From NCBI GenBank assembly GCA_028279745.1, contig JANQNC010000001.1, forward strand, positions 420,001 through 452,000: 32,000 nt of DNA. Direction: 5' to 3'. Source of the DNA: Candidatus Nanoarchaeia archaeon. Lineage in GTDB: Archaea > Nanobdellota > Nanobdellia > Woesearchaeales > JANQNC01. The translations under genes and the position numbers were made by a program. Positions 12,126-28,049 of this stretch are shown here, piece after piece. The notes beneath the pieces were generated by a model that searched no databases, was not told where the DNA came from, and saw only the letters and a program-made list of their open reading frames with translations. Every line of letters starts with the position of its first letter. Position 1 is the first letter of the stretch.

Positions 12126-12938
12126 ATGAAAAAGCTTGAAACAGAACTAAAATTAAGAGCGTTCAGCCAAAAAACAATACAAGCCTACATATACCACAAC
12201 ACAGAATTCTTAAAATTCATAGAAAAAGACGAAGAAAAAATAACCGAAGATGACATAAAACTATACTTAGCACATGTAATGACAGAAAAAGAATACAAAC
12301 CTGCTTCTACCAATCTTTGCCTAAGTGCATTGAAGTTCTACTATCAAGAAATACTAGGTAAAAACATATTTGCAAAGATAAAAGCTCCAAAACTAGAAAA
12401 AAAGTTGCCAACAGTATTAACAAAAGACGAGATGAGCAAACTAATATCTGCAGCAACAAACCCAAAACACAGATTGTTAGTAGAGTTGATGTATAGTAGC
12501 GGATTGCGGGTTTCAGAAGTTGTAAACATGAAAATAGACGACTTAGACCTTAACGAAAGAATGGGAAAAGTAATAGCAGGAAAAGGAAAAAAAGACAGAC
12601 ACATAATACTCTCAGAAGCACTATGCGAGCATTTAGAGGATTATCTAGTTGAGAGAGATGACAACAATCCTTACGTGTTTAATATACGAGAAACACACAT
12701 AACAGTAAGACAAGCACAAAGAGTAGTCAAAAGTTTAGCTTTGAAAGCAGGAATAAAGAAAAGAGTGTTTTGTCATGCGTTAAGAAGCTCATTTGCAACA
12801 CACCTATTGGAAAGTGGAACAGACATACGTATAATACAAGAATTGTTGGGACATAGTAATTTGCAAACTACTGAAAGATACACAAAAGTAAGCACAGAGC
12901 AATTAAAGAAAGTAAAAAGTCCTTTGGATGATATGTGA
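12126..12938 (+). CDS. xerA: tyrosine recombinase, XerA/XerC-like
   Basis: N-terminal SAM-like core-binding domain (LRAFSQKTIQAYIYHNTEFLKF) and catalytic residues in GLRVSEV (R), HALRSSFATHLL (HxxR) and LGHSNLQTTERYTKV (H, Y). GAGGTGG lies 5 nt upstream of the ATG. Confidence 0.85.
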   Translation: MKKLETELKLRAFSQKTIQAYIYHNTEFLKFIEKDEEKITEDDIKLYLAHVMTEKEYKPASTNLCLSALKFYYQEILGKNIFAKIKAPKLEKKLPTVLTKDEMSKLISAATNPKHRLLVELMYSSGLRVSEVVNMKIDDLDLNERMGKVIAGKGKKDRHIILSEALCEHLEDYLVERDDNNPYVFNIRETHITVRQAQRVVKSLALKAGIKKRVFCHALRSSFATHLLESGTDIRIIQELLGHSNLQTTERYTKVSTEQLKKVKSPLDDM

Positions 12939-14336
12939 TCATTTCTTGAGTTTAGTTATTAGGACGATTAAAGCAATCTCTATCCAGAATATAAAAAGAA
13001 TTTCTACAATAGCTAAATGATGTTGAACCAAAGAATGAACTAAAGTTGCTGAAATTGAACAGATCAAACCAATCATTAACGCATTGAAACCTTGCTTTTT
13101 GATGAATGAGAAGGTTGTTTTGTATATCCTAGCAAGAAGCCAGATGAATGCAGCCAATGCAAATATTCCTGTCTCTGCAGCGATAATCAAGAAATAGTTA
13201 TAGACATAATGCTGATATCCTACTTGGTTTATTGCCATATATGAACCAAGACCCCCACCAAATAAAGGGTTCTGCCTGAATAAGTCTAACCCAAGATTCC
13301 AATAATGAACTCTACCACTAGCAAAATTAGAGTCTAACTTCTCATCAAATATTTGGAAAGCATTTCTGCAAAACACGTTATGAGTGCATGAACGAGTATC
13401 CTTAATAGAGAACAAAAAAACAGAAGATAGCACAACCAAAACTAAGATTATTGTTGCAATTATCTTATGATGTTTAGCAAAAGAAAACTCCTTTTTGAAA
13501 GATAAGATTATCAATAAAAGAATGCCTGCAAAAACACCAACAAGGGCGCCAGCAGATATCGACAAGATAAGTGCTATGGATGAGAAAATTGCCATAAAGA
13601 TGTAAAACCAATGCTTCTTTTCCTTATTAAAGAACGCGAGAGAGAACGCTAAAGGAACTATTAGAGTCAAATAACCCCCAAATTCATTAGAATCATAAAA
13701 GTCTGCAGAAGCCGCATAATGACTTTTCACAACCTGAAAAACAGCAAAAGAACATACAAAAAAAGCAGACAAAAGCAATAAGAAAACAATATTATTAATT
13801 TGTTTTTTTGTTTTAATCGTGTTAACGATTAAGTAGAAAAATGCAATAACCTCCACAATGTTAAACAACAGATACATGAAAAAATAAGGATCCCAAGGCT
13901 GGATGACAAGGATGTGGTTAAGCCTAGAGAAAAAAGTTCCAAACGAAGGATTAATTTTTGTGAAGAATAATAATGAGGACAACAAAATTAGCAACAGATA
14001 AGCAATTATGGGCTTATCTAAAGGTGTTTTTATGAATAATTTTTCTTTATTGGTTGCCTTTTTTATGACGAAAGCGAGGAACACAGATAAGAAAATGAGT
14101 TCTATAATTGAGAAAGGAAATGGGCCAAATCTCTCACCAAACCTTACAAGTAATGGAGCCAAAAAAACAACAAGATAAACCCCATATTCTGGCTTGAATA
14201 GAGTAATCGTGAATGATAAAAGTATGAACATTAGCGTTATCGGATAACTTAAGAAAGGAAGAATGAAAAAACCACAAAGTAAGATTAGAAAAACAATTAT
14301 CAAAGAATAAATCAACGAATTATTTCTCTCAGCCAT
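12939..14336 (-). CDS. O-antigen ligase-like (Wzy_C domain) polytopic membrane protein, paralog 1
   Basis: About 11-12 TM segments. Loop motif GGGLGSYMAIN...YQHYVYNYFLIIAAETGIFALAAF resembles the Wzy_C signature. Start moved to ATG 14336 (MAERNNSL) because the ORF-track start at 14396 is a TTG. Confidence 0.7.
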   Translation of the reverse strand: MAERNNSLIYSLIIVFLILLCGFFILPFLSYPITLMFILLSFTITLFKPEYGVYLVVFLAPLLVRFGERFGPFPFSIIELIFLSVFLAFVIKKATNKEKLFIKTPLDKPIIAYLLLILLSSLLFFTKINPSFGTFFSRLNHILVIQPWDPYFFMYLLFNIVEVIAFFYLIVNTIKTKKQINNIVFLLLLSAFFVCSFAVFQVVKSHYAASADFYDSNEFGGYLTLIVPLAFSLAFFNKEKKHWFYIFMAIFSSIALILSISAGALVGVFAGILLLIILSFKKEFSFAKHHKIIATIILVLVVLSSVFLFSIKDTRSCTHNVFCRNAFQIFDEKLDSNFASGRVHYWNLGLDLFRQNPLFGGGLGSYMAINQVGYQHYVYNYFLIIAAETGIFALAAFIWLLARIYKTTFSFIKKQGFNALMIGLICSISATLVHSLVQHHLAIVEILFIFWIEIALIVLITKLKK

Positions 14337-14360
14337 CCTAGAGATAAAATGTATGAAAGG

Positions 14361-14370
14361 ATTTATAAAT
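14361..14370. promoter_or_regulatory. palindromic TATA box ATTTATAAAT shared by divergent genes
   Basis: The sequence is self-complementary. Its centre lies about 29-30 nt from each divergent start codon, ATG 14336 (minus) and ATG 14396 (plus). This is close to the TATA-to-ATG spacing seen at other leaderless genes in the window. Confidence 0.45.
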
Positions 14371-14395
14371 ATTCTTATCAGATAAAAGAGAAACA

Positions 14396-15799
14396 ATGAA
14401 AGAGAAAGGCAACAAAACCGCGAATATTCTGCTTGTAATACCTATAATAATCATCGCACTTGCAATACTAAGAACACCTTTGCCAGTCATCATATCATGC
14501 ATACTTTTACTTGCTTTCTACTTGAAACACCCACACCAAGCAATACTAATATACGCATTAATCTTAGTGCCTTCAAAAGTACTTAACTATTATTTTGGAG
14601 GAGGGTATGTTTCGATGCCAAAAACACTATTTTTACCTCTACTAATCGGATGGATAGTTATGCTCACAAAAGGAAAAAAAATCAAAAAAACAAGGTTAGA
14701 TCTGCCAATTTTGGTGTTTGGCGCACTGACCTTAATCTCGGGTTTAATCACGTTTTTCATAACCCCAAAAAGCACGACAGCATTTAGTTATCTTCTTCAA
14801 AGCTTTACAAACTTAGTGCCAATAACATCGCCTTACGCATTCATATTCTACACCACCAACACTTTGATAGGACTGCTTGCTTTCTTTTTCATAACAAACC
14901 ACATAGAAGACATCAAACAAATAAAAAACATAATGTTTGCATTTCTCATTTCAGGCATACCTTTAGCAATACACGCAATAATAGAGGCAATAATCACACC
15001 TTCCAGGACTGGCGTGAAAACAATATTTTTCGACCCAAATTTTTTCATATCATATCTAAGCTTTCCAATGGTATTCTCAATAGGTATGTTATTTATAGCA
15101 AGTAGATGGAGAGCAAAATTATCTTATCTAGCTGCCGCATTGCTGTTTAGTGCTGTCTGGGTTTTATCAAAATCAACAGCAGGCTGGGGAGGGATGATAG
15201 TTGCATTAGCAATCTTCTTTTTCGTGCTAAGCAAGAATAAGATAGTAAAGTGGAGATACCCAATAATAATCACAATACTTATCATCATTTCGACCTTGTT
15301 CTTATCAACACAATACTCCGGAGAGCTATTAAAAGAAACCCCTTTATCTAACATACAAACAGAAGTATACTGGACTGTTCATTCTGATGATATAAACGAG
15401 CTTACAAGCGAAAGAGTAGAACGGTTCTGGGCACATGGCTGGGAACTGATTAAAGAAAAACCGTTGATTGGACATGGGTTTGGAAGAACATTCAAAATGC
15501 ACTGGGGCACTCTGTCCCCCCTACACAACCACTACATACAGTTAGCAGCAGATGCAGGAATCTTTTATCTTCTTGCGTTCATATGGATTGTTGTGATGAT
15601 CTATGTTGAAGGGGTGAGAAGGCTAAAAACATACCCTGTGCTGACTGTAACATTGATAGCAGCAATAACAACAACAATACTGCATCTAGTGGCACAAACG
15701 CTCTTTATACTGAATGAGATAAACCTATTATTCTGGATAGTTTTGGGATTATTGGTTGCGATACCTTCAAAAATCCAAAATAAAAAATCTAAGAAATGA
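14396..15799 (+). CDS. O-antigen ligase-like (Wzy_C domain) polytopic membrane protein, paralog 2
   Basis: 467 aa with about 12 TM segments. Motif GHGFGRTFK...LHNHYIQLAADAGIFYLLAF is Wzy_C-like. Confidence 0.7.
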   Translation: MKEKGNKTANILLVIPIIIIALAILRTPLPVIISCILLLAFYLKHPHQAILIYALILVPSKVLNYYFGGGYVSMPKTLFLPLLIGWIVMLTKGKKIKKTRLDLPILVFGALTLISGLITFFITPKSTTAFSYLLQSFTNLVPITSPYAFIFYTTNTLIGLLAFFFITNHIEDIKQIKNIMFAFLISGIPLAIHAIIEAIITPSRTGVKTIFFDPNFFISYLSFPMVFSIGMLFIASRWRAKLSYLAAALLFSAVWVLSKSTAGWGGMIVALAIFFFVLSKNKIVKWRYPIIITILIIISTLFLSTQYSGELLKETPLSNIQTEVYWTVHSDDINELTSERVERFWAHGWELIKEKPLIGHGFGRTFKMHWGTLSPLHNHYIQLAADAGIFYLLAFIWIVVMIYVEGVRRLKTYPVLTVTLIAAITTTILHLVAQTLFILNEINLLFWIVLGLLVAIPSKIQNKKSKK

Positions 15800-16394: not shown

Positions 16395-16535
16395 TATCTA
16401 TGCACCCCCGTACGTATTATGAATGAGGTGGTTTATAAAGATATTTGTTGTAGAAAATCTATATTTTGAAGTTATGTATTCAGTGATGTGGAAAATAAAT
16501 CCAACGTAAGGTTTATATAGTACTTTGGCTTATAA

Positions 16536-17207
16536 ATGACTATGGGGTGGATATTTGGCAGTGAAAAGATAGACTCACTTAAGGAGTCATTGAATAAAAA
16601 TATTTCTAAATTCACAGAATGGATCAGTTATTTTCAGCAAAAAAACAAAGAACAAGATAATAGATTGGCTGAAATAGAAAGAAAGTTATCAGAAAGACAA
16701 GATCCGGATCAGATCCAGTATGTATTTTCACGAATAAATGATCTAGAAGGTTCAAGATTTGGCGGTGAGGAAAGGTCTAGGCTGAATTATGTCTACCAAA
16801 AGATACATGAGCTTGAACAGAAAGGAGACTCAAGGGAGCATATAAGTGTTTTGAGCAATAACCAGATGCATATACTGAATAAGATAAGGGAGTTGGAGGC
16901 TAAGCTAGAAAACAGCGAGAGAAGACCTGTTCAGCAGAATGTTTCAGTGAGAAGTGCGCATGAAAAGATAGTCAAAAAAGTAGTCCAAAAATCCAAAGAT
17001 TATATCAAAAATTCAGTGTTAAATTTAATCAAAAAATACGAGAACATAACAGGCTCACAATTAAAGGAAATAATAGTGGAAGAACAAGGGCTATGTTCAA
17101 AGTCATCTTTCTACAGAATTCTTGATGAGATAGAACAAGAAGAAAAGATAAAATCAGAAAGAAATGGAAGAGAAAAAGTGTACAAATTAGTGCATGTTTT
17201 GAAGTGA
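16536..17207 (+). CDS. coiled-coil plus winged-helix DNA-binding protein (orphan)
   Basis: 223 aa. Long N-terminal coiled coil and a C-terminal MarR/ArsR-like wHTH (VLNLIKKYENITGSQLKEIIVEEQGLCSKSSFYRILDEIEQEEKIKSERNGREKVYKL). TTTATATA at 16512-16519 suggests a leaderless start at the second ATG (16542). Confidence 0.65.
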   Translation: MTMGWIFGSEKIDSLKESLNKNISKFTEWISYFQQKNKEQDNRLAEIERKLSERQDPDQIQYVFSRINDLEGSRFGGEERSRLNYVYQKIHELEQKGDSREHISVLSNNQMHILNKIRELEAKLENSERRPVQQNVSVRSAHEKIVKKVVQKSKDYIKNSVLNLIKKYENITGSQLKEIIVEEQGLCSKSSFYRILDEIEQEEKIKSERNGREKVYKLVHVLK

Positions 17208-17255
17208 TTCTTTAGTTTTTTAGTGAAGTTTTTTTACAATTAATTGTTAATTTAG

Positions 17256-17285
17256 GCAAAATTTTATTCTAAAATTTTGCTTTTT
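17256..17285 (+). terminator. hairpin (11-bp stem, 3-nt loop) followed by T5
   Basis: GCAAAATTTTA-TTC-TAAAATTTTGC (17256-17280) followed by TTTTT (17281-17285). T6/T7 runs and the 12-bp palindrome ACAATTAATTGT (17236-17247) precede it. It lies downstream of the 16536-17207 gene. Confidence 0.45.
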
Positions 17286-17299
17286 GATGGATGGTTGTT

Positions 17300-17570
17300 T
17301 TTCTATTGGGAAAGTCCCAAAAATGCGTTTTATCGACGGTGGGACTGTTTGGGACAATCCCTGGGACAATGGTTAATATAGGCCGCAAATATACCGATAG
17401 TCTTGGGACAGTCCCAGTTTAGTCTTGGGACAGTCCCAGAAAAATAAGGCGTTAGTATATCAGCAAGCGTAAAACAAAAGAATAACAGATTTAATTGTCC
17501 CAGAATAGTCTTGGGACAGTCCTGGGACAGTCCCAGAATAGGTGTTTGAGACAATTGAAATGGGACTACT
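17300..17570. repeat. cluster of GGGAC/GTCCC half-sites including three perfect 13-bp dyads TGGGAC-A-GTCCCA
   Basis: Perfect dyads at 17404-17416, 17426-17438 and 17523-17535; near-perfect at 17512-17523; variant TGGGAAAGTCCCA at 17307-17319. The 20-mer TAGTCTTGGGACAGTCCCAG occurs in tandem (17398-17417 and 17420-17439), with a 17-nt copy at 17506-17522. Extra half-sites at 17341, 17351, 17363, 17497 and 17562. Confidence 0.9.
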
Positions 17571-17588
17571 GGCGTAAAAAACACGGTG

Positions 17589-17990
17589 AAAACCGGGTTA
17601 AAATTTAGCCAAAAATCGATGAAAAAAATAGGCCTAAAAATGGCAAAAAAAGTAGGGGTTTTGATGGCATAAAATCTGGCAAAAAAATTAACCAAAAAAT
17701 AGTCTAAAAATATGCCCTTTATAAAGGAAAATGGGCAAAAATGAGCAAAAAAGGAGGCTAAAATGGCCTTCTTTTAGCAAAAGTGAGAGTTAATTTTGGG
17801 CAAAAACACACAAAAATCAAAGATTTTTGGTCCACTTGGCGTGGATGGCCAAAATTTGGCAAAAAGTGAGGGTTATTTTAGGGAATGATTTGGGGCAGAT
17901 GCGAAAAATGGCCAAAATTGGACAAAATACAACAAAAAGTGAGAGTAGAAATAGGCATAAATTTGGAAAAAATCTAAAATATCGAAAAAT
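17589..17990. repeat. helically phased A-tracts (intrinsically curved DNA candidate)
   Basis: A4-A7 tracts start at 17589, 17600, 17611, 17622, 17636, 17645, 17671, 17681, 17694, 17706, 17728, 17737, 17747 and 17760. That is 171 bp over about 16 helical steps, or about 10.7 bp per step. Phasing continues at 17904/17914/17924/17934 and 17967/17976/17985. Many tracts are preceded by GGC or GCC. Confidence 0.75.
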
Positions 17991-18216
17991 ATTAGATTTA
18001 ATGAAATCAGCATATATTGGAAAAACGAAAAGTGAGAGTTGTGTAAAAGGTTTAATCAAACCCCCAAATTGAAAATTGAGAGCAAATATATGAAAAATAA
18101 GAGAAAGTCCAAAAATGAGGGGGTTATGGCAGTTTAAAGGTAAATAGTGAGACTAGACCAGTTAATAGATGTAGTTGGAGAGCCAAATAGGTGCCAAAAA
18201 TACGAAAAGTGAGAAT
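17779..18216 (+). repeat. seven same-orientation copies of a 12-nt motif AAAAGTGAGAGT (iteron-like)
   Basis: 17779-17790, 17935-17946 and 18028-18039 are exact. 17862-17873 (..GGGT) and 18205-18216 (..GAAT) each differ by one base. Degenerate copies at 18072-18083 (AAAATTGAGAGC) and 18142-18153 (AAATAGTGAGAC). Spacing varies from 42 to 93 bp. Confidence 0.85.
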
Positions 18217-18222
18217 TAAGCC

Positions 18223-19146
18223 CTATTTCATAGGCTCAGAACCAACCACAAAGAACTGTTTACCGTCAAAAACCCAGCTTACCTTCTGTTTACCGTCGAG
18301 AACCTTCTCGACACGTTTAGAAATTCTTGCAACTTCATCAGTAAAACGCTCTTCCATCACCTGCAGTTTCATTTTATCGTCGGAAAGAGTCTTGTTAATT
18401 GTTTTTCCTGTTTCTTTATCTCTTGTGAACATCAAAGTCTTTTCGCCGATATTGGATTGTTTTAATTCGTTTGAGTCTTTATCAACAATATAAACGTCTG
18501 GAGAATTTTTTTCTAAGCCTTCTAATGATCCGAAAACAGCTTCAATTACCACTTCATCAGCGTCGGAAGAAGGGTTTTTTGTGTAAGCAATGCCAGAGAA
18601 TTCAGCATCAACACTTTGCTGAACAACTATCGGTAATGAGATATTTTTCCAATCATAGTTATTCTTCTTCAAGTATAGAATATTTTTTGCTGTGAATATA
18701 GAAGAGTAACAAGCCTTGACATGTTTGATTAATTCTTCAGCACCTTTAACATCTGTAAAGAATTCTTGGAGTAATGCAGTTAGTGCTTCGTCTTCTACAG
18801 CAGGACTGATCTTTACAGAGACCAAAGGAGAATCTTTTTCTGAAAGGTTATCAGCAGATAAAGTGTCGTAAGCATCTTCTATCTCGTCGTTGCTGAAGTT
18901 TTTCTCCATGATCAATAGTTGAATCTTTCTAGCTGCAAATTTGATCTCATCAGGGTTTTCTGTGTCTACACCTTCCATTATACTATCAATACCCAGATTA
19001 TGAACGAATGAGAAATATGTCTTTGAAGGAATAACAAAACCAATAGGCACATTAAGTGCTGTCTTGAAAATCTTGCTAAGAGTTAGAGCGTTGGTTCCAA
19101 CTTCACTTTTGTCTGTGTCTTTAATGTTATTTAGCCAGTATATCAT
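18223..19146 (-). CDS. stand-alone PPDK_N-like (PEP/pyruvate-utilising enzyme ATP-grasp) domain protein, motifs divergent
   Basis: 307 aa from ATG 19146. VGTNALTLSKIFKTALNVPIGFVIPSKTY and PIVVQQSVDAEFSGIAYTKNP...EAVFGSLEGL align to the VGGKxxNL...VPxGF and VVQxMVxxxxSGVxFTxxP...GLGExxV motifs of the PEP synthase/PPDK N-terminal domain. No swivel-His or PEP-binding domain follows. Confidence 0.65.
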   Translation of the reverse strand: MIYWLNNIKDTDKSEVGTNALTLSKIFKTALNVPIGFVIPSKTYFSFVHNLGIDSIMEGVDTENPDEIKFAARKIQLLIMEKNFSNDEIEDAYDTLSADNLSEKDSPLVSVKISPAVEDEALTALLQEFFTDVKGAEELIKHVKACYSSIFTAKNILYLKKNNYDWKNISLPIVVQQSVDAEFSGIAYTKNPSSDADEVVIEAVFGSLEGLEKNSPDVYIVDKDSNELKQSNIGEKTLMFTRDKETGKTINKTLSDDKMKLQVMEERFTDEVARISKRVEKVLDGKQKVSWVFDGKQFFVVGSEPMK

Positions 19147-19147
19147 C

Positions 19148-19663
19148 TTAAGCACCGAATATTAAAGAAAATATCCCTCTACCAGTTAATGTAATTATCG
19201 TTACTAAGATTCCCGCAATAGTAACACCTATCGTATTTGCTATTACGAACTTCTTGAAATCTAAACCTATCAAATGAGATCCTAAAGCTCCAGAGTAAGA
19301 ACCTGAGCCCGGAAGCGGGACGCTGATGAATAAAGCCACACCCAGAAGTCCGAATCTGTCAACAAACTTAGTAATCTTCTTTTGAGTTCTCCTGACAAAG
19401 AATTGGTAGATGTTATCAATGAATTTTATCTTTGTGACTACACCTACAAATTTGTTTAAGAGTATGAATATAACTGGGCCAAGAATTGCATTAGCAATTA
19501 CACATGTGAAGAAAACTAACATCCAATGCATGCCAAAGCCAGAAGCCTCAATTCCAAATGGAAGGTTAACACTTCCTGCCAGAATCCCCAAAGGAATACT
19601 AAACCTTAGCTCAACAAAAGGAATGCAAGTGACTAACGCAAGAATGATTATTTCTTTAAGCAT
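19148..19663 (-). CDS. small membrane protein, COG2426/small multidrug export-like (PF06695-like)
   Basis: 171 aa with 4-5 TM segments. The N-terminal IPFVELRFSIPLGILAG motif resembles the P-x-x-E-L-R-x-x-I-P signature. Its stop lies 1 nt before the downstream ATG. Confidence 0.6.
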   Translation of the reverse strand: MLKEIIILALVTCIPFVELRFSIPLGILAGSVNLPFGIEASGFGMHWMLVFFTCVIANAILGPVIFILLNKFVGVVTKIKFIDNIYQFFVRRTQKKITKFVDRFGLLGVALFISVPLPGSGSYSGALGSHLIGLDFKKFVIANTIGVTIAGILVTIITLTGRGIFSLIFGA

Positions 19664-20853
19664 TTTGCACCCCTAACTCTCAATCTAACTTCTTCATGGG
19701 CTAAAACATCCTCAAAGAACTGTTTTGCTTTAATGAACTTTCTATCTATGTAAACTACTAGCCTATCCTCTTCAACATTGATCTTCTCATACTTTGAAAG
19801 GAATTTATGCATATTACTGCCTTGAACCCAAGCTAAAGGACCATAATGTTTTCTCTTTTTTGGGAGTACATCTTCATATAGTTCAAAGTATAAGAAGTTG
19901 AAACTCCAACCTGATGAAAAGATTCTAAAATCATTCAGCCTTAACTGCTTCTTAATATAGTTAAAAGCTTTCAATAATTTACTGCCTGAAATATCAGTTT
20001 TACCCTCGAGAGGAAGCACCTCAACAATGTATAGTTTAGTGCCTCTGTTTTTGGAGTTTTTGGATAGCTCTTTTACAGTAGTTTCATGGTGCCTAAAAAA
20101 TTTAGTATCCGGGTTCAAAACGTATCTATTTGCAGCCAAAATTATATTAGAAAATGATTCTGTTGATACAGAAGCAGATGCGTTTCTATCAGGCTGAACA
20201 GGGTCTATAACAATCAAAGGAGACTGTCTTTTAGCGCTGCTTAGTGTCTTATTAGCATGGTTTAAGTCTTTATAGTGTTGTTCTGGGTCTACGAAAACCT
20301 TAGGTTTCCATAAAGAAATTGCTTTGATTAGGTTATCAAAACCACCATAGTTTATGGTTAAAAGCTCTAGTATATATCCCGAGAAACCCATAACATGACT
20401 TTCTGCTCCGTAAACACCCGCTGATTTGAAGAATAACTTAGCAAGTCTTATGTCGTCATGCATATTCTTTATGTGTTTGTTTACCCAATTTACATGTAAT
20501 GGTGAAACATCTGTTATGTTAACCGCATCTTCTGCTTTCTCTATCTTTAGAACCGGGACAATTTCAAACTGGCCAATATGGAAATAATCTCTTGAGCCGT
20601 GGACTAGTTCAGGTTTGAATTTGCTCAATGTCTTTTCTAATAGTTTTGATAAGTTCTTGTCTTTGTACTTTTGGTCAAAAATAACGAAGATGTCAATATC
20701 TGGGTCATTAAGATAGTCACCTTTAGCATAAGAACCTCCAGCCATGACTTCAGCATCAATTTCAAATCTTTTGAGTTCTGTTTCTAACTGTTTAATGAAC
20801 TTCTCCACGCCTTCTGGTTCGGCTATTTCTTCGTAAACGTCTTTAAGTTTCAT
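19648..20853 (-). CDS. cca: class I (archaeal) CCA-adding tRNA nucleotidyltransferase
   Basis: GGSYAKGDYLNDPDIDIFVIF pol-beta motif near the N-terminus. The 401-aa length and overall sequence are typical of archaeal CCA enzymes. The 3' end overlaps the next gene by 16 nt. Confidence 0.8.
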   Translation of the reverse strand: MKLKDVYEEIAEPEGVEKFIKQLETELKRFEIDAEVMAGGSYAKGDYLNDPDIDIFVIFDQKYKDKNLSKLLEKTLSKFKPELVHGSRDYFHIGQFEIVPVLKIEKAEDAVNITDVSPLHVNWVNKHIKNMHDDIRLAKLFFKSAGVYGAESHVMGFSGYILELLTINYGGFDNLIKAISLWKPKVFVDPEQHYKDLNHANKTLSSAKRQSPLIVIDPVQPDRNASASVSTESFSNIILAANRYVLNPDTKFFRHHETTVKELSKNSKNRGTKLYIVEVLPLEGKTDISGSKLLKAFNYIKKQLRLNDFRIFSSGWSFNFLYFELYEDVLPKKRKHYGPLAWVQGSNMHKFLSKYEKINVEEDRLVVYIDRKFIKAKQFFEDVLAHEEVRLRVRGAKCLKK

Positions 20854-21029
20854 AATCTGAGAATTGTGGTAGTATGTTTAAAAAGGTTTCTTTATTGTTG
20901 GTGAAGGCAGGATAAGTTGTGTGTGAGTGAAATGCAGTAAATTAAGAAAAACAATTATTAACCATTATATGCAACTCTTCTTATCGTTGCTTTAAAGAAA
21001 AATGAAAAGAAAAAAAGAAAGAAGAAAAA

Positions 21030-21527
21030 CTATTTCTTCTTAGTTAAGAAAATTCCTACAACTGCAACAACTGCAACTAAGATAACCACCGCAGATACAC
21101 CAGATGTTTCTGGAACCGCAGAAGGTTCTTCCTGTGGGCCTGCGAAGAACTCGTGATTCAAGTCATAAACAGTAACAGTTGCACAAGGAGAACCGCCGCA
21201 CAAACAGTCTGATGCCTGCACTTCGCCACCATTCATCGCGAAACTAGGACAGTCTTCATTACTCCCTAAATCGTCTGCGCAAGGCCCGTTAGTGGAATAC
21301 CCTGGGATATCCTCGTCACATGCACCAGCATTAGGATCCTGCACGTTAAATTGCCAAGTGTTATCATGACAAAATGGCGCGTCCAAAGTCCATCCAGTTG
21401 AAGCAAATGCAGTAAAAATACCTGCACAGTTTGCATCAGTACAGTCTGCAACAGTTGTATCACATACTGCACTTGCAATTCCAACAGCAAACAATGCCAT
21501 CAGACAAAATATTAATACTTTTTTCAT
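21030..21527 (-). CDS. secreted cysteine-rich protein with an LPXTG-like C-terminal sorting or anchor signal
   Basis: Signal peptide MKKVLIFCLMALFAVGIASA and 10 Cys in an ectodomain of about 110 aa. The C-terminus is VPETSG, then a hydrophobic segment of about 20 aa (VSAVVILVAVVAVVGIFL), then TKKK. The gene is visibly more GC-rich than its neighbours. Confidence 0.7.
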   Translation of the reverse strand: MKKVLIFCLMALFAVGIASAVCDTTVADCTDANCAGIFTAFASTGWTLDAPFCHDNTWQFNVQDPNAGACDEDIPGYSTNGPCADDLGSNEDCPSFAMNGGEVQASDCLCGGSPCATVTVYDLNHEFFAGPQEEPSAVPETSGVSAVVILVAVVAVVGIFLTKKK

Positions 21528-21549
21528 TTTATATCACCTCGAAGAGGCC

Positions 21550-21565
21550 CGGAAATTTATTTCCG
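21550..21565. promoter_or_regulatory. palindrome CGGAAAT-TT-ATTTCCG between divergent genes
   Basis: 7-bp arms at 21550-21556 and 21559-21565, 23-38 nt upstream of the minus-strand ATG at 21527. A related palindrome lies at 24228-24246. Confidence 0.3.
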
Positions 21566-21710
21566 ATGTCCTCCAATATTTTTAACACATAAAAATGTGA
21601 TAAGTGTAATTCTGGAAATTTCAGTATTTAAACTTTACTAAAAAAAAACATCCGATAACATCAAAAGATTAATAAACAAAACAAACTAAAAATAAAGAAA
21701 AGAGGTAACT

Positions 21711-22901
21711 ATGGCTGACATACTAACAATACTAACAATAATAGGAGTTCTATTACTGATCGGGATATTAATATCAATAGTGTCTGCAAAGATAAAAGTG
21801 CCAAGCATATTATTACTACTTCTTGTTGGAGTGTTTGCAGGTAACATATTATACAAAGGACAACCAATAATTGATCTGCCACCATTATTCCTAACAGGGA
21901 TAGGAATACTAGCCTTAATCATGATAGTATTTGATTCATGTGCTAAGCTAAACATAAAAGAGATGGAAAAGTATTCAGTGCCAGCACTGAAATTAGCAAT
22001 GACCTTCTTAGTACTTAATGCGATCTTCCTATCAATAGCAACATTCTTTATCTATGGCACAACAGTACAGTTCGCAATATTGTTTGCTGTGCTAATGTCT
22101 GGGACAGCACCAGATGTAGTATTGAGCATGTTAAGCACAACAAAAAACAAAGTTGTAGAAATACTAGAGATGGAAGCAATCATAAATACTCCTCTCACAG
22201 TTCTGTTGCCATTCATGATACTAGAATTTGGAGAGATAGTTAATGTAAAATTCTTATTCACCAAGACAGTAGAGCAGATCACACCCTTCCTAACCCAGAT
22301 AATTGTAGGGATAGGGGCAGGAATGCTAATAGGCATAGTATTATTTGAGGTAATGAAAAACAAATACTCAGAAAAATTAAGTCCACTAGCAATAATAACC
22401 GCAGCACTAGTAACTTATGTACTTGCTGAGAACTTATCAGGAAATGGGGTTGTAGCAGTAACAACACTAGGATTCTTCTTTGGAACACTACAAGTAAAAA
22501 GAAAAATTTCCTTACTTGGATTTGAATCAGTATTTTCAAACTCACTAAGAATACTAGTATTCATTTTACTAGGAACAATAATACAGATACCTTTAACATT
22601 TGATTTCTTCATAAAGTCTCTTTCAATATTCTTAATATTCTTAGTAATCAGATTTATCACAATAATGATAACATTTGGAGAATATGAACTAAAAGAAAGA
22701 ATCTTCATGACATTAAGCGTATCAAAAGGGATAGCTGTAGCAGTTGTTACATTCTTCCTGATAACATACAACCTAGAAGGGATGAGGGAGATACTGAATT
22801 TAGCATTAATGTTTATTCTATACAGCATACTGGTTTCTTCAATAACAGCATGGTTCTCGAAACATTTAATAAAAGAAAATATCAAACCTGAAAAAATATG
22901 A
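21711..22901 (+). CDS. cation:proton antiporter (Na+/H+ exchanger family, CPA1/NhaP-like)
   Basis: 396 aa, about 11-12 TM segments, no soluble domain. SGTAPDVV resembles the (S/A)TDP(V/A) motif of NhaP-type exchangers (from memory). GAGGTAA lies 5 nt upstream of the ATG. Confidence 0.7.
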   Translation: MADILTILTIIGVLLLIGILISIVSAKIKVPSILLLLLVGVFAGNILYKGQPIIDLPPLFLTGIGILALIMIVFDSCAKLNIKEMEKYSVPALKLAMTFLVLNAIFLSIATFFIYGTTVQFAILFAVLMSGTAPDVVLSMLSTTKNKVVEILEMEAIINTPLTVLLPFMILEFGEIVNVKFLFTKTVEQITPFLTQIIVGIGAGMLIGIVLFEVMKNKYSEKLSPLAIITAALVTYVLAENLSGNGVVAVTTLGFFFGTLQVKRKISLLGFESVFSNSLRILVFILLGTIIQIPLTFDFFIKSLSIFLIFLVIRFITIMITFGEYELKERIFMTLSVSKGIAVAVVTFFLITYNLEGMREILNLALMFILYSILVSSITAWFSKHLIKENIKPEKI

Positions 22902-23671
22902 TAAAAATAGGACCTGCAGGATCAGGCTTGGGAAATGAAGAAGGGATAAAAGAGGTAGCTAGCAAAGGATTAGATGCAGTTGAGATAGAATTTGTTTATG
23001 GTGTTAGGATGTCATTAGACGCAGCAAAAAAACTGGGAGAGGCAGCTAAAGAGAACAAGATCCATCTTAGTATACACGCACCTTATTATATCAATCTGGC
23101 ATCAAAAGAAAAAGAAAAGATTGGAGCAAGTAGAACAAGAATATTACAAAGTTGTGCAAGAGGAGATCTATTCTTTTGGGATAAAAAAGTGCCAATAGTA
23201 TTCCATGCAGGGTTTTTCATGGGAAGAGATAAAGAAGAAGTATATCAAATCATCAAAGAGCAGATTCTAAAATTACAAGAAGAGATCAAGAAAAAAAAGT
23301 GGAATGTGATATTGTGTCCAGAAGTTACAGGCAAAAAAACACAGTTTGGAAGTCTAGATGAGTTACTAAGATTAATGAAAGAGACCAAGTGCGGGATATG
23401 TGTGGATTTCTCACACCTTAAAGCAAGAGAAAGTGGAAATATAGATTATGAAGAAGTCATGAAAAAACTAAAAAAGGTAAAACATGTGCATGCACACTTT
23501 TCAGGAATTGAGTACGGAGAGAAAGGAGAGATAAGACACCTGATGACAGAAACAAAAGACATCAAAGAATTAATCGGATTGTTGAAAAAATACAAAATTG
23601 ACGTTACAATAATCAATGAAAGCCCAGACCCAATGGGAGATAGTCTAAAGACAAAGAAAATATTGGGATAA
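22898..23671 (+). CDS. endonuclease IV-like TIM-barrel protein (AP endonuclease family 2)
   Basis: HAPYYINLAS, VFHAG, CPEVTG, CVDFSHL and HAHFSGIEY follow the metal-ligand strand-end pattern of Nfo-like enzymes. ATGA overlap with the antiporter stop. Confidence 0.6.
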   Translation: MIKIGPAGSGLGNEEGIKEVASKGLDAVEIEFVYGVRMSLDAAKKLGEAAKENKIHLSIHAPYYINLASKEKEKIGASRTRILQSCARGDLFFWDKKVPIVFHAGFFMGRDKEEVYQIIKEQILKLQEEIKKKKWNVILCPEVTGKKTQFGSLDELLRLMKETKCGICVDFSHLKARESGNIDYEEVMKKLKKVKHVHAHFSGIEYGEKGEIRHLMTETKDIKELIGLLKKYKIDVTIINESPDPMGDSLKTKKILG

Positions 23672-23838
23672 ATAAAATTCTTTAGAAAAAATAACGATAT
23701 ATGTTATTTATCAAAAACATATGTTTGTATTTTTTAAAGCAGATTTGTATCAAACTAACAATATTTGCGTTTTTGGTATAGATATTAGCGGAATATGCCC
23801 GCTAAGCTTTATAAACAAAACAATAACTCTAACCTCAG

Positions 23839-24237
23839 ATGGAACAAGTTATACTAGACACAAACTTTCTGATGATCCCTTTCCAGTTCAAGGTAGACAT
23901 ATTTCAAGAGTTAGAGAGAATAATGGAAACACCTTACGAAGTATGCATACTAGACAAAACAATTGATGAACTAGACAACATAATAGACAAACAGAAGGGA
24001 AAACACAGAGATATGGCTAAAATGGCCAAAAAACTAGTGGAAAACAAGAATATATGTATATTAAAAACAGATAAGCTTAAAAATGTTGACCAAATCCTGC
24101 TAGAAAAAGCCGAGAAAAATAGCTTTATAACTGCCACACAAGATATAGAGCTCAAACAAAGGCTAAAACAGAAAAAAATCAAGATCATAGTATTGAGACA
24201 GAAAAAATATCTAAAAATAGAGGCAGGCGGAAAATGA
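23839..24237 (+). CDS. PIN-domain protein (Fcf1/Utp24-like, COG1412 type)
   Basis: ILDTNFLM N-terminal acidic PIN motif and FITATQDIELKQRL C-terminal motif. Conserved archaeal position next to rpoE/spt4/S24e/S27ae. TTTATAAA (23808-23815) is centred 27 nt upstream of the ATG. Confidence 0.75.
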   Translation: MEQVILDTNFLMIPFQFKVDIFQELERIMETPYEVCILDKTIDELDNIIDKQKGKHRDMAKMAKKLVENKNICILKTDKLKNVDQILLEKAEKNSFITATQDIELKQRLKQKKIKIIVLRQKKYLKIEAGGK

Positions 24238-24246
24238 AATTTTCCG
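24228..24246 (+). other. inverted repeat CGGAAAAT-GAA-ATTTTCCG spanning the PIN gene stop codon (hairpin or protein site)
   Basis: 8-bp arms at 24228-24235 and 24239-24246. The TGA stop (24235-24237) sits at the arm-loop junction. No T-run follows directly. Confidence 0.3.
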
Positions 24247-24271
24247 GACCTCTGAACGAGGCATAAAAAAA

Positions 24272-24832
24272 ATGTTCTACCGAACCGAAATAAAAGACCA
24301 CATAAGAGTTCCGCCAGAAGACTTCGACGCAGAACTAGAAGAAGCAGTAGTAAAAAATATCAAGAAGAAGTATGACGGATACATCGACAAAGACATAGGA
24401 ATAGTTATTGACGTTCCAGGGGTAAAAGAAGTGGGTGAAGGCATAATTATACCCGGCGATGGAGCAAGCTACTACAATACTACATTCGAACTAATGGTAT
24501 TTAAGCCAGAACTACAAGAAGTGGTTGTGGGAAAGATAAAAGACATTGCAGAATTTGGTGCATTTATAGGACTAGGACCAATAGAAGGAATGATCCACGT
24601 TTCACAAACAATGGACGACTTTGTGAGTTTTGCAAAAGACAAAGTTTTAGCAGGAAAAGACTCCAGAAGAACATTAAAAGTTGGAGACAACTGCAGAGCA
24701 AGAATAATCGCAGTGAGTTACAAAGACATAAACAATCCAAAGTTAGGACTTACAATGAGACAGCCTAAGTTAGGCAAACTGGAATGGTTAAAAGAGGACG
24801 GTGAGAAAAAACCGGCAGCTAAGAAAAAATAA
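24272..24832 (+). CDS. rpoE: DNA-directed RNA polymerase subunit Rpo7/E'
   Basis: MFYRTEIKDHIRVPPEDF...S1-like domain VVVGKIKDIAEFGAFIGLGPIEGMIHVSQ. 186 aa. Confidence 0.9.
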   Translation: MFYRTEIKDHIRVPPEDFDAELEEAVVKNIKKKYDGYIDKDIGIVIDVPGVKEVGEGIIIPGDGASYYNTTFELMVFKPELQEVVVGKIKDIAEFGAFIGLGPIEGMIHVSQTMDDFVSFAKDKVLAGKDSRRTLKVGDNCRARIIAVSYKDINNPKLGLTMRQPKLGKLEWLKEDGEKKPAAKKK

Positions 24833-24842
24833 GGTGTAGACG

Positions 24843-25028
24843 ATGAAAAAAAGAGCATGCAAATCATGTAAAGCATTCACAGACAAAGATACTTGCCCAG
24901 TATGCAACGGGAAAAAGTTTGCAACAACATGGCAAGGAAGAATCACAATCCTAGACGAAGAAAAAAGCGACATCGCAAAAAAGATAGGAATGGAGAAAAA
25001 AGGAGAATACGCAATAAAGGTAAGATAA
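24843..25028 (+). CDS. spt4: transcription elongation factor Spt4 (RpoE'')
   Basis: 61 aa. CKSC...CPVC zinc ribbon followed by TTWQGRITILD. Conserved position after Rpo7. Confidence 0.85.
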   Translation: MKKRACKSCKAFTDKDTCPVCNGKKFATTWQGRITILDEEKSDIAKKIGMEKKGEYAIKVR

Positions 25029-25029
25029 A

Positions 25030-25419
25030 ATGAGCATAGAGATACAATCACAAGAAAAAAAACCACTATTACTACGAGAAGAGATAAAAGCAGCAGCAAC
25101 ATTCAAAGGAGCAACACCATCAAGACAAGACGTAAAAAAAGAAATCGCTTCTAAACTAAAAAAAGACGAAAAACTAGTAGTTGTAAAAAACATAATCACA
25201 AAATACGGAGAAGAAAAAGCAGAAATCATCGCTCACGTATATGAAAATGAAAAAGATCTGCAAGAAATAGAACAAGAAAGCACAATCAAAAGAAACACAC
25301 CTAAAAAAGCAGAAGGTGAAGAAGCTGCAGCTGAAGCACCAGCAGAGGAAAAAGCTGAGGAGAAACCAGCAGAGGAAGCTAAAGAAGAAGCACCTGCTGA
25401 AGAAAAGAAAGAAGAATAA
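25030..25419 (+). CDS. rps24e: 30S ribosomal protein S24e with an A/E/K/P-rich C-terminal tail
   Basis: KKPLLLREEIKAAATFKGATPSRQDVKKEIA...AHVYENEKDLQEIE...IKRN fits S24e. Residues of about 91-129 are a low-complexity tail. Confidence 0.9.
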   Translation: MSIEIQSQEKKPLLLREEIKAAATFKGATPSRQDVKKEIASKLKKDEKLVVVKNIITKYGEEKAEIIAHVYENEKDLQEIEQESTIKRNTPKKAEGEEAAAEAPAEEKAEEKPAEEAKEEAPAEEKKEE

Positions 25420-25434
25420 TCAAGGTAATCAAAA

Positions 25435-25632
25435 ATGGGAGATAAAAAAGAAGTAAAAAACAAAAGACCAACAGTGATCTGGGAAAAATACAAAGTAGAA
25501 GGCGACAAGGTCGAACGAAATAACAAATACTGCCCTAAATGCGGTGATGGATACTTAATGGCAGAACACAAAGACAGAGTTTACTGTGGGAAGTGCCATT
25601 ACACCGAGATGAAAGGGAAAGATAAAGAATAA
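25435..25632 (+). CDS. rps27ae: 30S ribosomal protein S27ae
   Basis: 65 aa. CPKCGDG...CGKC zinc ribbon and the conserved S24e-S27ae order. Confidence 0.9.
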   Translation: MGDKKEVKNKRPTVIWEKYKVEGDKVERNNKYCPKCGDGYLMAEHKDRVYCGKCHYTEMKGKDKE

Positions 25633-26990: not shown

Positions 26991-28049
26991 CTATTGATTC
27001 TCCTTTTCCTCATGCTTTGTCTCACGAGGTTCATCAGCACCACCTGCTTCAGGCTGAGTTAGAGGTGCTGTGCTTTCTTCTTTCTTTTCTTCTTTTGGTT
27101 GTTCTTCGGACTTTTCTTCTGAAGGTTCTTCCTTTTTCTCTTCTTCCTTAGGCTCTTCTTTCTTATCTTCCTCTTTAGCTTCTTCTTTAGGAACCTCATC
27201 AGTTATGTTAGCTGTTGACTTAAGTGAAAGCATCTGTCTTTCTGCTTTAGTCAATAACTCTTCAGCAACAACATCTGCCATGATGTTTTGTTCTAAAGCC
27301 AAAGCCTTTGAATCTGTAAACGCTTTCTTTATCAACAACTCAGTGTTGTCTGCAGTTGGATAAGCTGCTTCAAACGCGAGGTTGAAAGCCCATCTTGAAG
27401 CTTGTGAAATGTTGTCAAGGTATTCTTGTTCATCTATTGCAAGAACTTTCTTATCGAATAAAGTGCCGTCAGCATAAACGTGAGTCAGATTAAGACCAAT
27501 CTCCATCGGCTCAATACCTAATCTTAGTAAGATTGAAGATAAGTTTTCATCAATAACATCGCCTTCTTTAGCAACAGTTGCGTCCTCTTTAATCGCAACT
27601 TTACCATCCTCAATTCCTGCTTTAAGTCCAACATTTCCTAGTTCTGAAATGATCGGACCAGGTGCGAACTGTGTAGGTCCTGCTTGAACAACAATATCTT
27701 TAGGTGCAACACTTCCTGCCTTAGCAGGCGCACTACTTTTGCTCTTATCTAAAGTCTTGTAAAGCGTAAAAGGGTTATCTGATGTAAATAATAAAGCAGG
27801 CATTCCTGCTAATTTTTCTTTTAACTCTTCAATCCCTGGTTTATCTTTAACCTGTTCAAAAGCCAGTCTGAACAATCTTTTTCTGCCCATAACTATAGTA
27901 ACAGTTTCTCTTAAAGACCCTCTCATCTTTGCCAATTGAGCTGCAGGCAAAGAAGTCATATCTAAAAGACCGACAACTTTAGCTTCAGAAATAAGCTTTG
28001 CATATTTCTTAACTGCATCCTTTTTCCAGTCAGCAACGTGAGCAGTCAT
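26991..28049 (-). CDS. rpl10: 50S ribosomal stalk protein P0 (L10)
   Basis: The N-terminal L10 domain (VADWKKDAVKKYAKLISEAKVVGLLDMTSLPAAQLAKMR) and position between L1 and P1 fit P0. The C-terminal K/E-rich tail lacks the GLGxLFG-type end. Confidence 0.9.
   Translation of the reverse strand: MTAHVADWKKDAVKKYAKLISEAKVVGLLDMTSLPAAQLAKMRGSLRETVTIVMGRKRLFRLAFEQVKDKPGIEELKEKLAGMPALLFTSDNPFTLYKTLDKSKSSAPAKAGSVAPKDIVVQAGPTQFAPGPIISELGNVGLKAGIEDGKVAIKEDATVAKEGDVIDENLSSILLRLGIEPMEIGLNLTHVYADGTLFDKKVLAIDEQEYLDNISQASRWAFNLAFEAAYPTADNTELLIKKAFTDSKALALEQNIMADVVAEELLTKAERQMLSLKSTANITDEVPKEEAKEEDKKEEPKEEEKKEEPSEEKSEEQPKEEKKEESTAPLTQPEAGGADEPRETKHEEKENQ

Follow-up and report, generated by a model that had tools for sequence, protein, structure and literature searches.

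The dyad cluster and the gap that holds it

The stretch analysed here, hereafter the window, is 32 kb of contig JANQNC010000001.1 (positions 420,001 to 452,000, assembly GCA_028279745.1) from a Candidatus Nanoarchaeia archaeon of the Woesearchaeales, and the feature in question is a cluster of TGGGAC/GTCCCA dyads in a gene-free gap of 1,015 bp. The window has a GC content of ~34% and, by Pfam, carries genes for aIF2-gamma, S6e, L21e, Rpb4, Rpb7, the L1/L10/P1 ribosomal proteins, an archaeal CCA-adding enzyme and a XerA-like recombinase. The gap was flanked by two convergent genes, one for a 223-aa protein with a coiled coil and a winged helix-turn-helix (wHTH) domain and one for a PPDK_N-domain protein (18223-19155, - strand). 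The list of open reading frames (ORFs) and their translations placed no gene in the gap, and zero genes were called in the matching gap of the identical Logan contig L001, which speaks against coding sequence. No tRNA was found in the gap by a tRNA search, and Rfam returned no match at the gathering threshold in the whole window and none at E ≤ 1 in 17100-18350.

Perfect copies of the 13-bp palindrome TGGGACAGTCCCA were read at 17404-17416, 17426-17438 and 17523-17535, and copies with two mismatches at 17350-17362 and 17512-17524; lone half-sites were present at 17340, 17362 and 17561 (TGGGAC) and at 17497 (GTCCCA), and the sites of the array spanned 17307-17566. The original prediction, made from the letters alone, had listed the three perfect palindromes and the one-mismatch variant at 17307-17319, and all four were found where it had put them. 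It had also given a near-perfect copy at 17512-17523; this copy was present, but it extends to 17524 and overlaps the next palindrome, the pair being a head-to-tail duplication of an 11-mer (TGGGACAGTCC followed by TGGGACAGTCC(CA), 17512-17535). A search for TGGGACAGTCCCA with up to two mismatches returned 7 matches in the window against 0.32 expected, a count reached by 0 of 100 shuffled sequences. Six of these matches lay within 17307-17535, and the remaining one (22100, two mismatches) stood alone. Eight of ten copies of TGGGAC and five of six copies of GTCCCA fell inside 17300-17570, with two and one copies respectively elsewhere in the 32 kb over which uniqueness in the source genome was assessed, showing that the cluster is local rather than dispersed, as had been proposed. 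The dyad cluster is real and confirmed.

The 20-mer TAGTCTTGGGACAGTCCCAG occurred at 17398 and 17420, and Tandem Repeats Finder (TRF) reported 1.9 copies of a 22-bp period at 100% identity in 17398-17439, in agreement with the tandem noted earlier; the second recurring motif, GTCCCAGAATAG, was likewise recovered at 17497 and 17530. TRF further reported 2.5 copies of an 11-bp period in 17507-17533. From arithmetic on the positions, the TGGGAA of the variant dyad at 17307 and seven TGGGAC starts (offsets from 17307 of 33, 43, 55, 97, 119, 205 and 216) fit one grid of ~10.75 bp, and the eighth TGGGAC start (17561, offset 254) lies off it. The earlier remark that the dyads face the same side of the helix therefore holds for nearly the whole array.

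The array had been described well, but it is only the first module of an element of ~1 kb (Table 1); the box module at its far end had been missed. Good copies of the AAAAGTGAGnGTT box were located at 17779-17791, 17862-17874, 17935-17947, 18028-18040 and 18205-18217, and weaker variants near 18072, 18111 and 18143. The second half of the gap was A-rich on the + strand, and the sense strand of the boxes was purine-rich (A 0.37, G 0.24). The periodicity of A-tracts peaked at 10.5 bp, with R = 0.25 in the window and 0.11 over all elements of the family described below, compared with ≤0.04 in flanking DNA. Near the start of the gap, ~50 nt past the stop codon of the wHTH gene, a hairpin was found that is probably the terminator of that gene; it was not conserved in an alignment with the relative L002.

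Table 1. Features of the element and its linked genes (window coordinates).
Feature	Position	Strand	Basis
Whole conserved non-coding element: iteron module, A-rich spacer, box module	17208-18222	+	between stop codons of two convergent genes
Hairpin: perfect 11-bp inverted repeat GCAAAATTTTA-TTC-TAAAATTTTGC, 3-nt loop, then TTTTT	17256-17285	+	repeat search, sequence
Variant dyad TGGGAAAGTCCCA	17307-17319	.	1 mismatch to palindrome
GTTTTATCGACGG box within the iteron module	17327-17339	+	position kept in L002 (alignment)
Three direct TGGGAC half-sites (17340, 17350, 17362), spacings 10 and 12 bp	17340-17367	+	
Tandem 22-mers TAGTCTTGGGACAGTCCCAG(TT) with two perfect palindromes (17404-17416, 17426-17438)	17398-17439	.	
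GTCCCA (17497), then iteron pair TGGGACAGTCC plus TGGGACAGTCCCA (17512-17535) including the third perfect palindrome	17497-17541	.	
Final lone TGGGAC half-site, off the 10.75-bp register	17561-17566	+	
A-rich spacer with GGCAAAAA/GCCAAAAA repeats and phased A-tracts	17570-17778	+	sequence; TRF periods 10-11 bp
Box module of unidirectional AAAAGTGAGnGTT boxes (repeat AAAAGTGAGAGTT)	17779-18217	+	sequence, repeat searches
Gene for 223-aa protein, N-terminal coiled coil and C-terminal winged helix; candidate iteron binder	16536-17207	+	
Second coiled-coil and wHTH gene, 177 aa	15861-16394	-	weak Pfam HTH_24; synteny

One phased element in related archaea

Scanning the GTDB representative genomes added 80 loci, all in metagenome-assembled genomes of DPANN archaea; the source genome was not one of them, and the closest encoded a protein 39% identical to that of the window. 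The comparisons cover 66 analysable loci, with ±10 kb taken at each and 889 kb of flanking DNA in total. The dyads of the window proved to be this genome's version of an array of 11-bp repeats that lies beside one winged-helix gene in at least 65 related DPANN species. The conserved unit was the head-to-tail iteron TGGGAC(T/A)GTCY (more fully T-GGGAC-(T/A)-(G/A)-T-C-Y), repeated about once per helical turn: direct spacings of 11, 22, 33 and 44 bp were counted in 204, 132, 83 and 56 pairs, and the 11-bp period was dominant. The palindromic arrangement was seen in 27 cases, at 21 of the 66 loci. The iteron unit is itself nearly palindromic, which explains the perfect 13-bp dyads of this lineage, and several units in this genome have been completed to 13-bp palindromes. 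A symmetric dimer on a palindrome, which the original prediction had put forward, is thus at best a local elaboration and not the conserved design.

At least three half-sites were found within 400 bp of the wHTH gene at 65 of 66 loci, and at ~60 of 65 loci both motif classes, iterons and boxes, were concentrated in the 1.3 kb beside it. Pairs of iterons (GGGAC-N6-GGGAC/A) numbered 94 inside the elements vs 4 in the 889 kb of flanks, a 282-fold enrichment, effectively refuting a dispersal like that of miniature inverted-repeat transposable elements for the DNA sampled. A dispersed or mobile repeat, or the remnant of an integrated virus or plasmid, is accordingly the least probable of the explanations considered here. 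It could draw on the XerA-like tyrosine recombinase gene 4 kb away (12126-12938) and on the 11-bp-period TGGGAC repeats of 109 viral contigs. However, the motifs were nearly absent from the flanks and from the rest of the window, the same housekeeping synteny recurred in 66 species, and none of the viral contigs encoded the wHTH family, their number fitting, by our own estimate, a random sampling of 11-bp tandem repeats. A Xer/dif site was rejected as well. A dif site consists of two 11-nt inverted arms with a 6-nt spacer (PMC8371274), a geometry from which both candidates depart: in the dyads, arms of 6 nt flank a single central nucleotide, and the hairpin at 17256-17280 has a 3-nt loop and is unconserved.

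The viral contigs (L085-L193), drawn from IMG/VR, carried TGGGAC-N5 three times and ranged in GC content from 27% to 74%; in several low-GC phages, TGGGACAAA stood three times directly upstream of a TATAAT-like box. Since these contigs lack the wHTH family, their iterons were judged unrelated, and the 11-bp repeats in viruses may be convergent or a widespread type of phage iteron. A metagenome scan with a 20-mer common to the window and L002 gave 3 matches. One was L194, a Woesearchaeal locus of the majority type, and another was L195, a high-GC bacterial contig in which a TGGGAC/GTCCCA cluster lies beside a tRNA gene and which is unrelated; that cluster occupies 1570-1640, and the contig, like the viral ones, does not encode the wHTH family.

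The three-part architecture was read directly in L002, L004 and L194 and established statistically in the 66 loci. Iterons filled the first ~300 bp from the gene, with a median of 11 half-sites that were mostly on the box-sense strand. They were followed by a spacer with a median length of 275 bp, whose AT content was somewhat above that of the locus and very high in some species only; the lowest GC content over 100 bp of spacer had a median of 0.26 and a range of 0.08-0.49, and in L194, L004 and L016 a stretch of 150-200 bp between the boxes and the iterons was extremely AT-rich. Next came 5-12 boxes per element (logo AAAAGTGAG-n-G-T-T from 313 copies). The core TTATCG[AT]CG, counted on both strands, was 8.6-fold enriched and present at 29 of 66 loci; in some relatives (seen in L013, L041, L048 and L194) the GTTTTATCGACGG-type box was a full palindrome, TTATCG-N-CGATAA. 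In L002, whose protein is 62% identical to that of the window, matching dyads and an A-rich and GTGAGAG region lay downstream of the gene; the alignment showed that the iterons and the GTTTTATCGACGG box kept their positions and the block GTCTTGGGACAGTCCTGGGA was identical, whereas the spacers had diverged. L004 (protein 38% identical) had the mirror arrangement, with the element upstream of the gene. A further relative, L003, had a very AT-rich gap of 1.1 kb (1452-2568), located after the second wHTH gene, with TTTTGATAAAAA-type repeats and an inverted pair of GAAAGTGAGAG boxes; its iterons precede the first wHTH gene, and both wHTH genes thus appear to sit between the element's two modules.

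The boxes were strictly oriented, AAAGTGAG being counted 253 times in sense and 0 times in antisense within the elements. Distances between consecutive boxes were quantised at 42, 52, 63, 73, 84 and 94 bp and onward, with a best period of 10.6-10.7 bp and R = 0.39 (bootstrap interval over loci 0.28-0.47); the maximum among 2000 jittered nulls was 0.23. Steps of ~10.6 bp are not multiples of three and would be unexpected for coding repeats. The whole kilobase is organised on one face of the helix, which points to a nucleoprotein complex at the DNA level and against a role of the boxes in RNA. A long purine-rich non-coding RNA gene, in which repeated AAAAGUGAGAGUU motifs would act as a protein or RNA sponge and the dyads as operators of its promoter, would suit the strand orientation of the boxes and the purine-rich sense strand; T-runs also looked scarce on that strand and frequent on the antisense strand (judged by eye, uncounted), and TATA-like sequences lie between the dyad sub-clusters. 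However, spacing quantised at the helical repeat of DNA is not predicted for an RNA function, no Rfam family was matched even at E ≤ 1, and the sequence between boxes was not conserved, so such a gene is very improbable.

The linked winged-helix genes and their neighbourhood

The wHTH gene that adjoins the array was tied to it at 65 of 66 loci, in keeping with the suggestion that a neighbouring wHTH protein may be the binder. Pfam gave only weak winged-helix matches for the 223-aa protein (TBPIP/Hop2 and PadR). In an AlphaFold2 model, residues ~150-220 had a predicted local distance difference test (pLDDT) score >90 and were preceded by long helices, and a fold search returned the winged helix of Hop2 (2mh2), cullin WHB, MarR, PadR, Fur and TubR; as modelled, the domain is a generic winged helix. 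The protein had 234 homologues, and nearly all of those with a name belonged to Woesearchaeota or Nanoarchaeota; the copy in the window was found on a 1.30-Mb contig. The C-terminal stretch QGLCSKSSFYR.L was invariant, and the recognition helix SKSSFYR(I/L)L was unchanged even in the most divergent members. No sequence relative was detected in PDB (coiled-coil noise only), and no family in Pfam or NCBIfam. The 177-aa partner gene lay beside the first at 54 of 66 loci, and its HTH region was less conserved than that of the 223-aa protein; neither the partner nor two conserved neighbours had a family in NCBIfam or Pfam. Judged from the linkage and the unchanged recognition helix, the array is probably bound by the linked winged-helix protein.

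On the wHTH side, synteny comprised the second coiled-coil wHTH gene, in some loci a 169-aa HTH gene, the XerA-like recombinase and PAC2; on the other side it comprised a small methyltransferase, a 169-aa unknown protein, UPP synthase, AMMECR1 and the L1/L10/P1 block; neither side carried genes for replication or partition NTPases. At 59 of 66 loci the wHTH gene and the methyltransferase side (the methyltransferase itself in 39) diverged from the element, which forms the intergenic region between them, with the boxes in the sense orientation of the divergent methyltransferase operon. Where relatives were inspected by eye, the wHTH gene had its TATA box inside the array, which suggests that the array autoregulates this gene there.

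The window departs from this layout. At 7 loci, including the window, only the wHTH gene has been inverted in place and the iterons are now 3' of it; its promoter region in the window (16395-16535) held TATA boxes and zero iterons. The second flank of the window has also been replaced, and both neighbours converge on the element. L007, L008, L017 and L023 share the inversion and have kept the iterons 3', and because their wHTH proteins are only ~31-39% identical to that of the window, the inversion is probably old. The gene was inverted, yet the array was maintained, indicating that autoregulation cannot be its sole role. In the window, moreover, neither flanking gene can be transcribed from the element; the three perfect palindromes, the 22-bp exact tandem repeat and the five good boxes have been retained all the same, showing that control of adjacent promoters is not the whole function here.

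These observations bear on the reading of the element as a long-range control region, with the iterons as autoregulatory operators of the wHTH gene and the boxes as upstream sites for the divergent methyltransferase operon, of which the window would hold a recently uncoupled but still-bound relic. The divergent position, the box orientation and the embedded TATA box of the relatives all agree with it, and clusters of binding sites beside transcription-factor genes are, as a matter of general knowledge, mostly regulatory. On the other hand, the iterons persist 3' of the gene in all carriers of an inversion that is probably old, and the motifs of the window remain perfect beside genes that cannot be transcribed from the element. 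A kilobase with 5-12 phased, strictly unidirectional boxes would also be exceptional for genomes described as ~93% coding. Overall, a control region of this kind is rather unlikely.

Other rearrangements were observed around the element. In the window, ~7.5 kb of other genes (18223-25600) lie between it and the L1/L10/P1 block, unlike in relatives, which indicates a lineage-specific rearrangement; they encode the PPDK_N protein, a small multidrug exporter, the CCA-adding enzyme, a Cys-rich secreted protein, a Na/H exchanger, an AP_endonuc_2 TIM-barrel protein (AP-endonuclease-2/xylose-isomerase-like), PIN, Rpb7 and S24e. The Cys-rich protein (21030-21527, 165 aa) has a signal peptide and a C-terminal anchor and belongs to no Pfam family, and the local GC content was 0.44 vs ~0.34. 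Two divergent paralogous Wzy_C (O-antigen-ligase-like) membrane genes (12939-14396, - strand, and 14396-15799, + strand), their starts abutting at 14396, are inserted between the wHTH pair and the XerA-like gene, an insertion that most relatives do not share. The S6e and L10 genes carry low-complexity tandem repeats rich in Lys and Glu, with units of 15-27 bp, at their 3' ends (2146-2443 and 27073-27190).

Possible roles and known systems

A chromosomal origin would give the modules another meaning: the iterons and boxes would be sites for an initiator or accessory protein and the AT-rich spacer the unwinding element, either of a main origin far from orc1 or of a second, captured replicator-initiator pair like Sulfolobus oriC3/WhiP. 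A repeat-laden intergenic region of ~1 kb, apparently one per genome and beside a winged-helix gene, is what such a reading would expect, as are the AT-rich stretch of L194, L004 and L016 and the direct and inverted arrangement of one half-site at a 22-bp period, as in iteron replicons. Moreover, the Nanobdellota origin has only been assumed at orc1, which is single-copy and lies elsewhere in these genomes, and has never been mapped; a recent set of 208 complete Nanobdellota genomes was rotated to that gene (bioRxiv 10.64898/2026.05.13.725050). However, the window lacks orc1/cdc6, no Cdc6 or other AAA+ initiator was found among its Pfam-scanned ORFs, and no Orc1-like ORF (300-520 aa with an N-terminal Walker A motif) lay within 10 kb at any of the 66 loci. 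The original prediction had recommended a comparison with origin recognition box (ORB) and mini-ORB elements; neither the dyads nor the AAAAGTGAGnGTT boxes match the mini-ORB core TTCC...GAA, e.g. TTCCAGTGGAACT (PMC1904270). All boxes run in one orientation, with no inversion about an unwinding element; an AT-rich unwinding element common to all loci was rejected because the stretch is present in some relatives only; and the protein, one winged helix and a coiled coil, has neither a Rep nor an Orc fold.

Strand polarity also spoke against an origin. A regression of the top-strand GC skew at third codon positions (GC3 skew) of flanking ORFs, with gene strand and side of the element as predictors, gave an effect of 0.00 ± 0.015-0.025 for side, revealing no polarity switch at the element, although a weak effect could escape ±10 kb per locus. 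The intercept was borderline (~-0.07 ± 0.035) and of equal sign on both sides. Majority gene orientation was equal as well, most coding sequence running in the same direction on the left (43 of 53 loci) and on the right (35 of 53). A crude comparison of GC skew left vs right at 37 loci, which is confounded by gene strand, showed no sign flip. Separately, across 53-66 loci, ORFs on the strand opposite to that of the wHTH gene (as placed in the majority arrangement) had a higher GC3 skew on their coding strand than ORFs on its strand (~+0.13 to +0.22 vs -0.09 to +0.05). This difference was present on both sides of the element and hints at a replication-type asymmetry through the locus, at a borderline level (z ~ -2). 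Given the missing polarity switch, the lack of a nearby orc1, the unidirectional boxes and the non-ORB repeats, an origin was downgraded to a doubtful option.

We consider it probable that the cluster forms the iteron module of a Woesearchaeota element that is conserved, confined to a single locus, helically phased and ~1 kb long, and that it most probably serves the linked coiled-coil/winged-helix protein as a landing pad. In the mechanism we propose, this protein would read TGGGAC once per turn on a single face of the DNA and polymerise cooperatively through its coiled coil, possibly with the paralogue-like 177-aa neighbour. The polymer could then nucleate a bent or wrapped nucleoprotein complex that reaches over the phased boxes. 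Such a complex would have to serve something beyond the neighbouring promoters, and our best guess is a centromere-like site for chromosome organisation or segregation. With that role included, the full explanation is tentative and more apt to be wrong than right; it still ranks first among the roles, followed by the regulatory hub and then the origin, and everything else taken together, including the RNA gene and the mobile remnant, carries the same weight as the regulatory hub.

Several points weigh against this proposal. No partition NTPase (ParA, ParM or TubZ) was found near the element in Pfam scans of the window or in the synteny of relatives, and we know of no chromosomal centromere of such form in archaea. 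The proposal names no reader protein for the boxes, and its centromere-like role is put forward by analogy alone. The recognition helix and the motif are both invariant in all loci, so there is no co-variation to compare. In most relatives the element doubles as an ordinary divergent promoter region, with the wHTH gene and the methyltransferase operon on its two sides; a regulatory role alone could account for much of the conservation, and the window may have lost its methyltransferase flank recently. Finally, uniqueness in the source genome is known for the 32-kb window only.

Taking the centromere and the origin together, it is possible, and close to an even call though short of one, that the element is a hitherto unrecognised chromosome-maintenance locus of Woesearchaeota/Nanobdellota, whether a centromere or an origin (main or second) served by a non-Orc winged-helix/coiled-coil protein far from orc1. 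DPANN genomes are tiny and densely coding, and a non-coding, three-part, helically phased element of 1 kb has been kept in at least 65 species. The element and the protein family appear undescribed in Pfam, NCBIfam, Rfam, PDB and the searchable literature: papers on replication origins or ORBs of Woesearchaeota or DPANN archaea, or on this motif, did not come to light, and no experimentally defined origin, centromere or other chromosomal cis-element was found reported for DPANN. If the centromere reading is true, no chromosomal centromere would have been defined in a DPANN archaeon before this one, and two dedicated coiled-coil winged-helix proteins would build its phased nucleoprotein complex of ~1 kb; should the role prove regulatory, the control region would still be unusually elaborate for an archaeon. 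The element and its invariant-helix protein offer a testable handle on chromosome organisation, segregation or replication, and TGGGAC at 11-bp spacing gives the protein family, which lacks a Pfam, NCBIfam or PDB assignment, a precise DNA target.

Two replication systems share part of this design. Iteron plasmid replicons (RepA/RepE/pi, with iterons of 17-22 bp) resemble the element in having phased direct repeats of 11/22 bp beside a winged-helix gene, a half-site that also occurs inverted, as in Rep autorepression operators, and an AT-rich segment alongside. However, Rep has two winged helices (Rep_3), for which no match was obtained here in Pfam, NCBIfam or PDB, and the element has no polarity switch and carries boxes irregularly spaced over 500-800 bp. 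The likeness to ORB/mini-ORB origins lies in the clusters of 13-bp dyads with 5+1+5 geometry, the intergenic region of ~1 kb with multiple repeat classes and the adjoining winged-helix-containing gene; the element differs in its GGGAC/GTCCC motif, in having no orc1/cdc6 within 10 kb and in lacking inverted ORBs around an unwinding element.

The partition systems come closer in DNA architecture. In ParR/parC of plasmid R1 (type II), about ten direct iterons of 11 bp, one per turn, flank the promoter of the system's own gene; ParR, a ribbon-helix-helix protein, binds them cooperatively on one face and forms a helical nucleoprotein filament that is also autoregulatory, and its partner is the actin-like NTPase ParM from the same operon. 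The direct 11-bp arrays and, in relatives, the embedded TATA box are alike. By contrast, the protein here combines a coiled coil with a winged helix, no NTPase gene is nearby, and the locus is chromosomal with a second module of phased boxes. Partition-type geometry (direct iterons of 11-12 bp) is thus present, and overlap with the promoter is found in the majority of relatives but absent in the window, where the array no longer overlaps the promoter of the gene. In TubR/tubC (type III), a winged-helix protein forms a bent filament on tandem iterons of ~12 bp. TubR was among the fold matches (6aht, rank 37, E 0.043), but this match is weak and generic: Hop2, cullin WHB, MarR, PadR and Fur scored as well or better, no TubZ homologue was found, and the protein here has an N-terminal coiled coil of ~130 aa.

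The kinetochore-like RacA/ram system of Bacillus subtilis places a protein with a winged helix and a coiled coil on GC-rich palindromes, where it anchors the chromosome and does not act in transcription. The element has no detected homology to it, its protein has the reversed domain order, and ram sites are spread over hundreds of kb. The two systems are alike in GC-rich palindromes that stand out in AT-rich DNA and in the pairing of winged helix with coiled coil. By analogy, then, the DNA architecture of the element would resemble ParR/parC or TubR/tubC and the design of its protein RacA, the whole amounting to an iteron array with its putative cognate winged-helix protein.

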